64,000 bases of DNA from Eledone cirrhosa (lineage: Eukaryota): the NCBI GenBank assembly GCA_964016885.1, contig OZ024750.1, forward strand, positions 22,196,001 through 22,260,000, written 5' to 3'. Shown piece after piece: positions 2,849-63,980 of this stretch. The notes beneath the pieces were generated by a model. It saw nothing but the letters and a program-made list of their open reading frames with translations, searched no databases and had not been told where the DNA came from. How positions within the stretch are numbered: the stretch's first letter is position 1; each line of letters opens with the position of its first letter. A program made the position numbers and the translations under genes.

Positions 2849-4379
2849 ATATATATATATTTATATATATATATTTATATATATATATTTATATATATAT
2901 ATTTATATATATATATATATATTTATATATATATATTTATATATATATATTTATATATATATATTTATATATATATATATATATATATATATATATATAT
3001 ATATATATATATATATATATATATATATATATATATATATATATATATATATATATATATATATATGTGGTATTAGTCTTACGCTTTCAACAAAACTGCA
3101 AGTTTCATAGGCATTCTTCGTCAGGACAGTTATTCTTAGTTACAAGATGCAATTCTAATAATGGAGAATAACTGTCCTTACAAAGAATTCCTTTGAAGTT
3201 CGCACTTTGTTTAAAGCCTGCAACTAACACGCTGTATTAACACACACACACACACACTCACATATATATATATATATATATATATATATATATATATATA
3301 TATATATGTGTGTGTGTATGTATATATACATATATATATGAGTATATATATATGAGTATATATATATATATATATATATATATATATATATATATATATA
3401 TATATATATATATATATATAAATGAAAGGTAGAGTTAATAACTCATACTGAAACCCTGTAATTAACAAGCTCAAAGTATAAATACTGAGCAGTATAACAA
3501 TAATATATGTAGTAATAAACACAGTAAATCGTGTGTCTAATATTACGAGGGTTGAAGAACCACATTTATTTGAAATATTTAACCATGAAGCAGACAGAAT
3601 GATAAAAATAAAAATAAATTATATAGACCACCTCAATAACAATTACGGATAAATTAGGGATTAATCTGTTTCGCCCTGAGTGTGTTTGTAACAGATAATC
3701 CACGGACATCATCAGCGAGAGAATCTGATTAAATGCGACAAACACCTAATACTAACGTTCACACAGCAAAATGAATTCTTCACCTCGTGTGCCGTAAGTC
3801 AAAAGTGGTGTGAGTGTATTGGTCAGAAATAACACACACATATATATATATATTGGAGAAAACCACGTGTCTGTGGCGACCTTTAAAGTTACAACATACC
3901 CGCTTTGGCTAAGAACGAAAGACTTACTGAAGAAGTAAATCCTATGTTCTGTCGTCAAAAACCATTATATTGCAGACTCCTGCAATAGGAATTTGTCGAT
4001 CTTGGATTTGCAGAAACTTAGTGCTGATGTTGGATGTGATATTGTGATCTATATTGTGGATATACGATGTAAGTTATATATTTTACACTCAGCCTCACCG
4101 TTATGTCCAGGTCAGAATAAAATCTTTTCCTGGGTCATGTATTTTCGTTGCTCTGGTAATGCGGTTGGACTGCCGACTGCTATATCTGATTTGCTAAGCT
4201 GTCTGAACGTAATGTTATTACTCTGGGGTCTTATCCGAGTGCTAAAGCTACAGACCGATTATGCATATATGCTAGCTTGGCCGTATACTAAAGCTTCGTC
4301 AATACTGTACTAAAATTTATATATATATATATATATATATATATATATATATATATATATATATATATATATATATATA

Positions 4380-4466
4380 CAGGATGTCCCCAAAGGATGT
4401 ATACACACGTCAACAGCGCTTCTAATAAATAAGTGTAATATGTATATACATTTTTTGGACACCCTG
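4380..4466. mobile_element. 87-bp Tc1/mariner-type MITE
   Basis: About 27-bp imperfect TIRs CAGGATGTCC...GGACACCCTG, flanked by TA inside (TA)n. Confidence 0.8.
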
Positions 4467-4665
4467 TATATATATATATATTTATATATATATAGTATAA
4501 AAGAGAAAACACAGGTAAGCATTAAGAGAAGGATTTTATCCAGGTATTTACGACCGTTTCATTGGTAAGTGATATATATATATATATATATATATATATA
4601 TATATATATATATATATATATATATATATATATATATATATATATATATATACATATATATAATA

Positions 4666-4882
4666 AAGAAGGTGTGGTAGGTAAGATACCAAATGAACCA
4701 TAACGCCCGAGAGTATTCGATAGTTAAGGTAGTAGAGTGGGTGATAGAGAAAGAATCAGGACCCCAACGGCTGAGCTCCGACTGTTTCGACAGCAAAATC
4801 CGAACTAAACCACTAGTATTGAATACTGTCGGATCTAGCTGTCGAAACACCCGGCTGTCAGCCGTCGGGGTCCTGACTCTTT
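4666..4882 (-). mobile_element. Fold-back Penelope-like terminal element, family B (diverged)
   Basis: Similar to 7003-7213 and 15829-16039; inverted arms about 4755-4803 and 4829-4880; in (TA)n. Confidence 0.65.
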
Positions 4883-5566
4883 ATATATATATATATATGC
4901 GTGTATCTGTGTAGCCTTACCGTAGTTCTCGGGGGAAATTCACTATGACAACGTGTTCGGTAAGGCTGCCCATTTGCTATAACTCATTTTTTTTCTTCTT
5001 TTGTTGACTGTGCTGGAGCAATGAGAAATATAAATTGTCTTTCTTAAAGACACAATGTGCTGTCGGGAATCGAACTCATAACTTTACAATCGTGAGCCGT
5101 ACCCCGTAATTACTAAGTCACGTACCTTCACTAAACAATGCTAAACACTTAACGTACTGCTAGTGTTGCAGAATAAAACAAACCATCAGCAAGTATTATA
5201 AATGTTTAGAATGATGAAAACGTGATAACTTACATTTTTACTGCTGAAACTACAAGATATTGTTAATATTCCCAAGAGAAAGCAGACAGAAGTATAGACA
5301 GAAGTACGACTATAGACAGAAGTAAACGTATAGAAAGTTAAATCTATGACAGCTGCATGCATGGCTGTGGGATTAAGTCATTCACAATACAACCTCGTGG
5401 TTCTGAGTTCTATCCCATTGTTCGGATTTCTGTTGTCTGTGCGAGAGAGAAGGTGTGTGTGTTTGTGTCTGTCTGTATGCCTGTGCCAGTTTCTGTCTGT
5501 GCGTGTGTATATCTATATGTATGAATATGGACAAGAATATATAAGTATGACTATAGATAGAAGAGT

Positions 5567-5810
5567 GGAGGCACGTGGCCTAGTGGTAAGGGTGTTGGAC
5601 TTACGATCATAATGTCGTGGGTTCGATTCCTGGGTTGCGTGTTGTGTTCTTGAGCAAAACACTTCATTTCACGTTGCTCCAGTATACTCATCTGAAAAAG
5701 AGTACCAGTAATAGCTGGGGGTTTAACCCTTCGATGGACTGGCGTCCTATCCAGGGGGAAGTCTTGTACTCTCAGTCGCTTCATGCTATGAAACCGGGAT
5801 AAGCACTGAC
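5567..5810 (+). mobile_element. tRNA-derived SINE (family S3)
   Basis: TGGCCTAGTGG A-box, GGTTCGATTCC B-box, 3' ATGGACTGGCGTCCTATCCAGGGG. Copies at 50288-50500 and 53790-54050. Confidence 0.85.
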
Positions 5811-61400: not shown

Positions 61401-62599
61401 GTTTTGCTGCACGTTTTGCTGCACGTTTTTTTTCTTACACGTTGTTCCTATGCATTTTATCTACATGTGTTTTTGTTACACGTGTTTTTCCTAGATTTTT
61501 TCCATGAATGAAAGGAATGTCCAACTCATCATTAACTACTTACATTATGCTTATAGTTGAGATATATTTACAATTCTATTAGCTTAATCGACATAATCTG
61601 TCGAAGAAAGCAACATCTGCCCATAAATATTTAAGGTACCGCCCAGATATTTAAATTTCACAAATTTGGGGAAAAATTAATTCTTTAAAAGTACAAACTC
61701 ACAAAAAGAGAAACATAATACAATAGTAATGGAAATGCTGTTGATAAAGTCACATCGCTTTAACCCTTTATTTCTTGTTAACCATTATTGACGCTTCTAA
61801 TACTATAGTCTTTTGGGGGATTCTTTACGTTTGAAGAAATGTATGTGTGTGTATCTATATGTGTATGTGTCTGGTGGTGGTCATGGTGGTGATGGTGGTA
61901 GTGTTGTTGATGGTCGTGGTGGTGGTGGTGGTGGTGGTGGTAGTGGTGATGGTAGTCATGGTGGTGATGGTGATGGTGGTGGTTTTGGTGGTCGTTGTGG
62001 TGGTCATGTTGGTCATGGTGATGTTGGTGATGTTGGTGATGATGGTGGTGATGGCGGTGATGGGGGGGATTCTTTACGTTTGAATAAATTCGGTACTTGA
62101 ATTTCCCGCTAACTCTCGGTGAGCGGGAGGGGGGGGGGGGGGGGGTTAGCCTGACACTGTGATAAAGTTGGCCCTTTGAATCACAGGTGCAACTCATATT
62201 TTCCAACTGAGTGGACGACTAGAGCAACGTGAAATAAAGTATCTTGCTAAAGAGTACGTCGAACAACCGGGAATCGAACTCATAACCTTATGATTGTGAG
62301 CCGAACTCCTTAACTTCCCCTATACCACACGACTTCACCCAGGTTCTATAGTATTGTCTATAGTATTTACAATACAGTTCTATATCATTATGTAGCATCT
62401 GTAGTATTTATAATTCAGCTGGAGTTTGCTTTTTTAATGTAGCTCATTTTATACTTATAACATTTTTAGATCACTGAGTTAATGGTGTCTTTTCCTCACA
62501 GTATAAGTGTTATTAATTAAATTTGTAATACCCTCTAGATTAAATATGTTAACACTAACTTAACTACTTATTATTTATTAGTATTAGCTTAGTATTGGT

Positions 62600-62687
62600 T
62601 TACATGTCTTCGCGCCTCATTTCCGTATAACTCTGTCCTACTAAATCTGACACTGAGCTAAGGTCATAGAAATTATGAGAGCCACAT
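62600..62687 (-). CDS. Possible terminal coding exon of an upstream gene
   Basis: Pyrimidine tract and AG, then CGSHNFYDLSSVSDLVGQSYTEMRREDM-stop; no partner exon in the window. Confidence 0.25.
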
Positions 62688-62980
62688 CTTAAATTGAGAA
62701 AGAAATTAAAAAAGAAACAAATAAGTAAAGAAAGAAAGAAAGAAAGAAAGAAAGAAAGAAAGAAAGAAGTGTTCTGCTTCACTGGATAGTACAAGTTTAT
62801 AGTTATTTATGTCGGTCGGTTGCATCAGAACAGGTCCCTGCTAAACTAAATATCCAAATATATTTCAGTCTCTTTCTCTCTCTCTATATATATATATACG
62901 TATATGTATATATATATAGAGAGAGGGGGGGGCTGACAATAAGAAGTCTGAATTGCAGCTTCTTATGAAACTTTATTGCA

Positions 62981-63025
62981 TATTACAACTGTTTCAATAT
63001 CGATCAACTCGGGTTTCATCAGGCG
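62981..63025 (-). ncRNA. Decayed hammerhead
   Basis: CUGAUGA-AA..CGA-GUUGA-UCG..UU-GAAA-CAGUUG-UA; stem I does not pair. Confidence 0.45.
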
Positions 63026-63132
63026 ATCGGATCCCGACTCTTAAACCTGAAGCACAGCCCCACGAGAGACGGACCCCCTAACAGCATCGAGTGCTTAAAC
63101 TTTAATCTGTTATTTATATATATATATACACA

Positions 63133-63980
63133 CCAAGATATTAATAAATGGAAACTATATTTATAAAACCATATTTATTTGATTATATATATTTCAAGGG
63201 CGACCAAGCCCATCTTGGTGCGCTTTCATCAGATAAAATATAAAATTTGTTTTATAAATAACGACAAACCCATGCAAATCAACCTTAACGGTCGGAAATT
63301 CGCTGAATAGTGGAAACTTTTTACAGGTAATTCAACGTTATGTGTGAATATGCAAATGAATGTATGAAAAGTTGAAAAAACAACCGTTTATTTAAATTAC
63401 GCTGGAAAAAAGATAGGGAAGAAAGAGAAGAGAGAGAGAGAAAAAGAGAGAGAGAGAGAGAAAAAATTACAGTAATTTTCTCTCTCTCTCTCTCTCTCTC
63501 TCTCTCTCTCTCTCTTTCTTTCTCTCTCTCTCTCTCTCTCTCTCTCTCTCTCTCTCTCTCTCTCTCTCTCTCTCTCTCTCTCTCTCTCTTTCTTCTCTTT
63601 CTTCCCTATCTTTTTTCCAGCGTAATTTAAATAAACGGTTGTTTTTTCAACTTTTCATACATTCATTTGCATATTCACACATAACGTTGAATTACCCCTA
63701 AAAGGTTTCCACTATCCAGCGAATTTCCGACCGTTAAGGTTGATTTCCATGGATATGTCGTTATTTATAAAACAAATTTTGTATTTTATCTGATGAAAGC
63801 GCACCAAGATTGGCTTGGTCGCTCTTGAAATATATATAATCAAATAAATATGGTTTTATAAATATAGTTTCCATTTATTAATATCTTGGAACACTTACTC
63901 CAGTTATCTGTTGAGTGCTCTATATCAGTTATAAACACTTATGTTTGTCGGAATTCCAACAAATTAAATACAACTTCTAC
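63133..63980 (+). mobile_element. Family A fold-back element: ~750-bp palindrome (centre 63471) plus tail; hammerheads at 63176-63240(-) and 63782-63846(+)
   Basis: Arms complementary apart from scattered substitutions and (CT)n length; stem II ACCAAG/CUUGGU; tail TGAGTGCT at 63912. Confidence 0.9.

Follow-up and report, generated by a model that had tools for sequence, protein, structure and literature searches.

The stretch of DNA analysed here (the window) covers 64,000 nt of Eledone cirrhosa contig OZ024750.1 (22,196,001-22,260,000 of the forward strand), within an animal genome of 3.0 Gb, and carries a recurring heptamer, GAGTRCT, at the 3' ends of Penelope-like retroelements (Table 1). 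A sequence-only reading of the window had listed 15 such sites, all of which were found again with positions correct to within 1 nt: 12 hold the exact word and three differ from it at a single position (GAGTTCT at 13206, GAGCACT at 32317 on the minus strand and GAGTACC at 49471). The motif had been placed some 35-80 nt before a terminal microsatellite, in agreement with the 44-83 nt that we measured from its start to the tract. The type of tract was as described at most sites, with the exception of 17082, where it is (CT)n, and 32317, where it is (CA)n/TA. The list was itself incomplete, as two further exact sites lie at 18223 (-) and 63089 (+). Seven other exact matches in the window are located away from such ends or are opposite-strand readings.

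Host elements

The insertions that end in the motif are short and have a recurrent layout, in which (TA)n is followed by an inverted, 5'-truncated arm, a direct arm, a one-sided tail and (TA)n again, the motif sites being at the 3' ends. This combination of (TA)n, inverted pair and one-sided tail is the known layout of Penelope insertions (Craig et al. 2021, PMC8557442, a source covered here in part). Copies that continue past the usual end (read-through copies) run into the start of an open reading frame (ORF) with an RW[RK] motif. Two intact single ORFs were recovered (737 aa in L398 and 709 aa in L397), both with RIRWR/RLRWR at position 35, DKT at 115-118, YRDD, a CxCX5C linker (CNCRDRSKC and CNCRNRVDC), CDLC (CxxC), CKH (CxH) and a GIY-YIG-like VY..Y[IV]G near the C terminus; CCHH is absent by eye. 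The features reported for the Hydra clade are RWK, a change of DKG to DKT, CxCX5C, CxxC/CxH, a C-terminal GIY-YIG, a sense hammerhead and insertion at (TA)n (PMC8557442). Pfam and PDB sequence searches with the ORFs gave no match, so the domain names rest on motifs. A sense hammerhead core, recognised by pattern and therefore a predicted ribozyme, lies in the pseudo-long terminal repeat (pLTR); Rfam reported no hammerhead in the window at gathering score.

Judged by these sequence motifs, the sites probably belong to Hydra-clade Penelope-like elements, and the idea that the motif is shared by otherwise unrelated elements gives way to that of a single clade. The link is made for eight of the 15 sites by read-through copies entering a Hydra-type ORF start. 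The likeness to the published clade extends over the motifs of the 709-737 aa ORFs, the sense hammerhead, (TA)n and the inverted pairs, whereas published tails are 30-40 nt long against 75-110 nt here, and the part of that paper covered describes no conserved tail element (PMC8557442). Naiad and Neptune hosts were rejected: a search of the supplement with two exact 7-mers, which misses words split across lines, gave 22 matches, none at ends, and the Neptune-type families among the matches listed have a different tail.

The RW motif is present in eight lineages and truncated or altered in families E and F. Eight lineages share 28-55% identity in their N-terminal peptides while their tails are at shuffle level, which argues that the motif has been kept against a diverged background. 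Flanking sequence had been said not to align across families; this is correct between lineages (33-53% identity, compared to 41 ± 7% for shuffles), but some sites are kin, those at 7056 and 15986 belonging to one family and those at 18787, 33390 and 63913 to related families. The claim that the hammerhead shares the motif's strand, with the motif downstream, also stands in part: a core lies upstream in sense at seven of the 15 sites, whereas at 33390 and 54633 it is found on the inverted arm only. The site at 54632 had been called an exception to this order, which it is not, because its direct arm is truncated and the read-through copies of both of these families carry a sense hammerhead upstream. 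Two very short fold-back copies (33595-33615 and 49352-49437) have their apex in or beside the hammerhead, and the cores at 33595 (-) and 33615 (+) face outward.

Enrichment before (TA)n tracts

Enrichment over control flanks was scored in 800 kb outside the window (six regions picked blind), counting motifs 35-95 nt before (TA)6 or longer tracts. The motif precedes 51 of 975 (TA)n flanks, compared to 1 of 402 flanks at other dinucleotide tracts (p = 4e-7, with copies not independent of each other); in the window alone the figures are 10/132 and 1/66, which is not significant (p = 0.1). Occurrences peak 50-70 nt before the tract (43 of 176), a position at which five permuted 7-mers show no peak. 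On the opposite strand the motif was found in 29 of 975 flanks, against 51 on the motif strand; 17 of these 29 result from reading the palindrome GAGTACTC in the reverse orientation, and a further five face a TA tract of their own. Once an ACTC arm is demanded, 36 motif-strand flanks remain versus six on the opposite strand. Across the whole genome (+ strand), the motif plus (TA)10 gives 35,850 matches, compared to 2,408 for a comparably counted reversed control. Flanks were also clustered with BLAST for a naive de novo search of k-mers, which failed because low-complexity flanks fused 385 of the 679 into one cluster.

The hairpin unit

GAGTRCT is the 3' strand of a predicted bulged hairpin, RCUC-stem-loop-stem'-UH-GAGY-RCU, whose other strand is an RCTC word upstream of the core. 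In a set of 40 units from about 25 families, which are related by descent and do not give independent counts, the arm/core pair is A:U in 20, G:C in 19, G:U in one and A:C in none. The 2-nt bulge reads UH in 37 of the 40 and the loop measures 8-67 nt. Over the first three positions of the upper stem, pairing is seen in 93 of 120 cases if a 2-nt bulge is allowed for, compared to 33-43 of 120 in four other registers. G:U pairs number 17 versus three A:C (p = 0.003), an excess that favours the sense RNA strand. Before (TA)6 on the + strand of the whole genome, ACTC/GAGT occurs 46,429 times, GCTC/GAGC 4,251 times and the mixed ACTC/GAGC 468 times (some loci being counted twice); the fourth combination, counted in the 800 kb only, was seen at 1 of 975 flanks. 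The pairing probability of the hairpin is 0.63-1.00 in five of nine folded families. We regard the predicted fold as very probably real.

The conserved cis signal put forward by the sequence-only reading is supported for Penelope-like elements, and of its three options (a reverse transcriptase (RT) binding site, a pLTR promoter or initiator, a 3' processing signal) the RT-binding site is the best fit. That reading had taken one half of a helix for the whole, overlooking the 5' RCTC arm, the 2-nt bulge and the variable upper stem; the core is GAGY rather than GAGT, and neither the common clade nor a second unit beyond the genomic 3' ends (described below) had been noticed. The unit is not part of a hammerhead, since no GAA precedes the arm, a G follows GAGY in 26 of the 40 units and a G:C variant exists, even if several published hammerhead stems III of Hydra elements also pair ACUC with GAGU (PMC8557442). 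A coding motif was likewise rejected, as both units lie 5' of the ATG and loop lengths are not multiples of three. At gathering score Rfam returned one tRNA-like match in the window, with no family matching the unit; its other hits were microsatellite noise.

A 58-bp satellite of at least 10 kb (L152-L179 and L271-L299; G000:C1:14233000-14243800 and beyond) is built from the tail of family F, each repeat holding an ACTC/GAGTACT hairpin and a TATA stretch. A further family (L010:2918, L300, L373 and L387), often nested directly behind the ends of other families, has a GCTC/GAGC unit with a 7-position upper stem and a variable RCU flank.

A second unit and a predicted joining helix

A second unit was first seen in family A read-through copies and also, by eye, in the published sea cucumber and coral consensus sequences. 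In the families searched it was predicted, then found: the pattern GAGTRCT, TATA, GAGCRCT gave 806 matches, compared to 46 for its reversed control, and a GCTC arm, which that pattern does not contain, follows the tail end in the families listed. A longer-tail pattern gave 248 matches versus four. Between the hammerhead and the ATG lie first site 1, unit 1 and segment B, then site 2, unit 2 and segment B', where sites 1 and 2 are the two positions at which copies end. The distance from unit 2 to the ATG is 14-62 nt, placing it in the 5' untranslated region (UTR).

Segments B and B' form a family-specific predicted helix of 7-14 bp. When the 25 nt after unit 1 were compared with the 25 nt after unit 2 in 19 families, a family's own B' was better than every partner from another lineage in 10 of the 19 (permutation over 10 lineages, 1/100,000), and families A and A4 show a two-sided change in B:B'. 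The parts are nested, with hairpin 1, RCU and B followed by a spacer, site 2, hairpin 2, RCU and B', and energy folding returns this structure in families A, F, G, K and B, with competing folds in D, H, J and C. A like unit and an AU stretch thus stand before each strand of the long helix, which amounts to a pseudo-twofold design.

Core-core pairing (AGUGCU with AGCRCU) next to B:B' is another reading, in the form of a pseudoknot or switch that replaces the hairpins or alternates with them. The two cores pair at six of six positions in 16 of 19 families, and the minimum-energy folds of D, H and J use related long-range pairings, but those 16 families were selected by patterns that force most of the match, families F, B and C give only 5, 4 and 4 of 6, the cores of locus L399 (see below) are identical (both GAGCACT), and the local arm covaries with the core. 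We regard such pairing as improbable; it would in any case be compatible with the best explanation and not exclusive of it. Pairing of the motif with a downstream AGYACTC had been our first idea, the search for which was swamped by satellite, and it persists only in this form.

The motif might instead be a near-palindromic DNA site, GAGYRCTC, to which the endonuclease binds, directing new insertions next to existing copies and thereby building the pLTR. Many cores do read GAGYRCTC, and recognition of a plasmid by the endonuclease of Drosophila Penelope is reported to depend on the tail (PMC11167929). Such a site is nevertheless very unlikely in view of the covarying helices, the G:U pairs on one strand, an eighth base that is C in just 15 of 40 units, and a second unit which is missing from ordinary genomic ends yet marks their position.

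Copy ends and their spacing

A set of 6,302 distinct junctions served to map copy ends on 19 family references; once matches to microsatellite-like words had been discarded, 16 ends in 10 families remained. All 16 lie in an AU-rich stretch 6-10 nt 5' of the RCTC arm, with 18-77 nt from end to core. The sharpest case is family B, whose GCTC arm is picked out by the site 2 end with the matching core 67 nt away. At 46577 the distance from end to arm is 10 nt, microhomology counted.

This spacing bears on two other explanations. A promoter or initiator of the pLTR, composed of a TATA-like stretch and an initiator-like motif, has a precedent in the rotifer Penelope pLTR, where a TATA box stands 20 bp before an initiator-like TCACT (PMC3846280, covered in part), and the AU stretch is often 20-30 nt before the core. 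The full range of that distance is 18-77 nt, and a promoter needs neither a paired arm, nor a bulge register, nor B:B', which leaves it with very little probability; neither a promoter nor 3' processing accords well with the spacing and the pairing. A real fold with another RNA role (regulating translation of the ORF that begins 14-62 nt further on, packaging or hammerhead folding), the ends arising by (TA)n microhomology, is unlikely but somewhat better placed. Both ends are in AU-rich stretches, unit 2 is within the 5' UTR, and the family at 49471 violates the spacing. On the other hand, the elements are AT-rich throughout and still the 16 ends fall 6-10 nt before the arm, and the ATG follows unit 2 at distances that range from 14 to 62 nt.

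Loci outside the sample

A first metagenome scan with a single protein query gave no match; a scan with an RT alignment returned two loci at about 50% identity (L399 and L400), whose layout was compared and agrees with that described above. In L399 a hammerhead and AU stretches accompany two units, each with a UH bulge, and a B:B' helix with an 11-bp core; its minimum free energy fold consists of both hairpins plus B:B'. This helix beats 19 of 19 foreign partners and is reached by 12 of 500 shuffles. In L400 both units are present as variants, one with a C:G pair (a third pair type) and one with a UG bulge, and B:B' is weaker: one of its 19 foreign partners reaches it, as do 38 of 500 shuffles. 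The units can also be made out by eye in published sea cucumber and coral consensus sequences.

Proposed mechanism

We suggest that the unit probably positions the reverse transcriptase at two start sites, which would explain the Penelope 'tail', a proposal drawn from sequence comparison. In the Poseidon element PAc of Anolis, RT starts internally at two sites bounding the tail and works only if there is RNA 3' of the start; cutting and extension affect both DNA strands, and the protein is predicted to form a dimer (Frangieh et al. 2024, PMC11167929). If, following that work, the genomic ends are taken as RT start sites, a unit just 3' of each start is at the place where a binding element must lie. 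The protein would cut (TA)n DNA and bind the hairpin plus its RCU flank, the cut DNA end would anneal to the AU stretch just 5' of the hairpin, and copying would run upstream. A start at site 1 would give a short end and a start at site 2 a tailed end holding unit 1 and B, with unit 2 and B' remaining uncopied. Starts at site 2 would copy unit 1 into the tail, and this would account for the constant spacing of motif and tract across many families.

On the sense RNA the two hairpins and B:B' are predicted to fold into a nested, pseudo-twofold structure. A protein dimer may read both units of one RNA, or of an RNA pair swapped through B:B', and prime both DNA ends, a suggestion on which we are close to evenly divided. 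Priming of both ends would yield the inverted pair with the tail on one side, and is the weakest step of the scheme. The swapped pair is as plausible as a single molecule, because one RNA is hard to copy twice over the same stretch.

A number of observations weigh against this proposal. At the level of the fold, besides the common descent of the units, the base helix is only 4 bp long, the unit 1 pairing probability is 0.00-0.25 in four of the nine folded families, a few of the 468 ACTC/GAGC rows resemble an old sub-lineage rather than single mutants, and the tree of 13 N-terminal peptides is poorly enough resolved that the number of arm/core pair changes is not readable from it. No RCTC arm was found at 13204..13213. 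Five of the 15 window sites yielded no read-through copy, and at 54633 both units are present with the ORF not confirmed. The GCTC of the unit 2 arms found with the longer-tail pattern was already part of that pattern. B:B' is no better than controls in J4, M and the tested copy of E (the window copy of E, unlike that one, pairs over 10 bp), and in six of 19 families at least a quarter of shuffles match the family's own B:B'. As for the ends, families C and K use one of two nearby ends (the others being at 10 and 14 nt), and the inverted arm at 49471 ends 18-21 nt before the RCTC arm, outside the common spacing. Finally, the coral-louse consensus Hydra-1_Crog and Hydra-1_Obim have degenerate units only.

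It is conceivable, if rather doubtful, that Penelope-like elements generally prime from a twofold-symmetric RNA scaffold, in which a long helix has a priming site and hairpin 5' of each strand and is read by a dimer that starts copying at both ends of a break in the DNA; such a scaffold would then account in general for inverted pairs that carry a tail on one side only. In two Neptune-type families with tandem copies, the ends lie 10-11 nt 5' of CTCGTGT and 11-12 nt 5' of its complement, and the corresponding helix is part of the minimum-energy fold of L107, though not of L109. This single-helix arrangement would be a stripped-down form, so that the design may extend across the whole class and have implications for the ancestor of telomerase RNA. 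A class-wide rule may exist, for which these two families provide a lead. The Neptune-type families (L071-L100, L107 and L109) have a degenerate hammerhead-like core and no unit, and the complement of their tail word CTCGTGT is found just past the second end.

Relation to known systems

The elements, their hammerheads, tails and targets are already known; the unit is a real feature, and we regard it as a putative RNA element of the RT-recognition type. A literature search whose reach excluded subscription papers and Repbase and Dfam notes found no description of the unit. PAc shares with the Hydra families the two tail-bounding starts, the need for RNA 3' of the start and the predicted dimer, and we count as a further likeness that its start is in the loop of a stem-loop. 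It belongs to a different clade, its starts are inside the ORF and, in the part of the report covered, no RCUC/GAGY unit and no homology between target and start is reported and the binding motif is undefined, whereas the ends here are in AU stretches matching (TA)n (PMC11167929).

The proposed use of RNA structure has parallels elsewhere. In non-LTR retrotransposons (the R2 3' UTR and the 3' stem-loops of long interspersed nuclear elements, LINEs), a protein-bound RNA structure near the priming site gives template choice. R2 and LINE structures are 5' of the start and are copied; the Hydra unit, in contrast, is 3' of each proposed start and doubled, and its second copy would stay uncopied. 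In telomerase RNA and in the bulged epsilon hairpin of hepadnaviruses, an internal start is set by a neighbouring helix with a short primer-alignment stretch. The Hydra model involves no repeat addition or protein priming, and the likeness drawn here is one of layout. Penelope RTs and telomerase RT are sister groups (PMC8557442), and the unit would illustrate, on the Penelope side, internal priming that is guided by RNA structure and uses a short stretch for primer alignment. It bears on how Penelope-like elements pick their RNA and why copies end at two fixed sites, questions for which the in vitro study locates the starts and not the signal. With a covarying RNA structure and a rule for the spacing defined, and with intact ORFs available from this genome, the proposal is testable with a small set of mutants. 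For curators, the unit is a descriptor of Hydra element boundaries, with tens of thousands of copies in this genome.

Features of the window

Table 1. Hairpin units, tail and B segments of Hydra-clade elements in the window
Feature	Positions	Strand	Details
Unit 1	4220..4244	+	ACTC, 13-nt loop, GAGT-GCT; weak upper stem; tail end 4317; no read-through copy of the family found
Unit 1, family F	7049..7069	-	7 nt shorter than the 15986 copy; tail end 7005
Variant core TT-GAGT-TCT	13204..13213	+	49 nt before tract; same core in three of four other copies shown
Family F tail	15958..16037	+	inverted-arm end (site 1) to (TA)n tract (site 2)
Unit 1, family F	15966..15993	+	ACTC, 4-bp upper stem, TT bulge, GAGT-ACT; read-through L263 into second unit and Hydra-type ORF start
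Unit 1, family G	16366..16393	-	tail end 16317; read-through L267
Unit 1, family H	17075..17118	-	32-nt loop, 6-bp upper stem; hammerhead core 17230; read-through L302, L303
Unit 1	18216..18244	-	6-position upper stem, TT bulge; absent from the earlier list
Unit 1, family C	18617..18643	+	GCTC with GAGC-CCT; absent from the earlier list; family carries the 709-aa Hydra-type ORF
Unit 1, family A3	18780..18803	-	hammerhead core 18907, inverted-arm core 19241 (+); read-through L265
Unit 1	19914..19943	-	ACTC, 5-bp upper stem, TC bulge, GAGT-GCT; tail end 19839; no read-through copy found
Unit 1, G:C pair	32310..32335	-	GCTC with GAGC-ACT; hammerhead core 32434; resembles family B (L180, L184)
Unit 1, family A2	33374..33397	+	inverted-arm end 7 nt before arm; tail end 33455; read-through L244-L251; 737-aa ORF in L398
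Unit 1	33688..33711	+	1-nt bulge, 4-bp upper stem (by eye); hammerhead core 33615
Unit 1, family E	46556..46584	+	hammerhead core 46429; read-through L261
Segment B, family E	46587..46596	+	10 bp with B' of L261, -12.5 kcal/mol
Unit 1, variant GAGT-ACC	49456..49478	+	hammerhead core 49390
Unit 1, family J	54577..54640	+	52-nt loop; hammerhead on inverted arm 54503 (-); read-through L366, L379
Segment B, family J	54645..54656	+	12 bp with B' of L379, -12.6 kcal/mol
Unit 1, family A	63897..63920	+	hammerhead core 63790, inverted-arm core 63232 (-); inverted-arm end 7 nt before arm; read-through L123, L126, L139, L242
Segment B, family A	63924..63934	+	complements the segment after unit 2 in read-through copies

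Two places in the window join pieces of different families. The inverted arm at 17185-17640, upstream of the site at 17082, matches the 3' end of L100, a family unlike that of the direct arm, and may be a chimeric or nested insertion; at 63089-63115 (+) an exact motif without an arm is immediately followed by a reversed piece of family C, marking a junction of two families.

Other features of the window include an uninterrupted 1181-aa non-LTR retrotransposon frame at 27780-31325 (-), which has RT, CCHC and restriction-like nuclease motifs, ends near (TAT)n and is one that we take to be R4/Dong-like. A 63-bp tandem repeat of four units is present at 9842-10092, and the tRNA-like head of a short interspersed nuclear element (SINE) at 47186-47243. 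Cysteine-containing, exon-like frames of a host gene lie at 37936-38331 (-) and 39920-40492 (-), the former presumably CUB-like.

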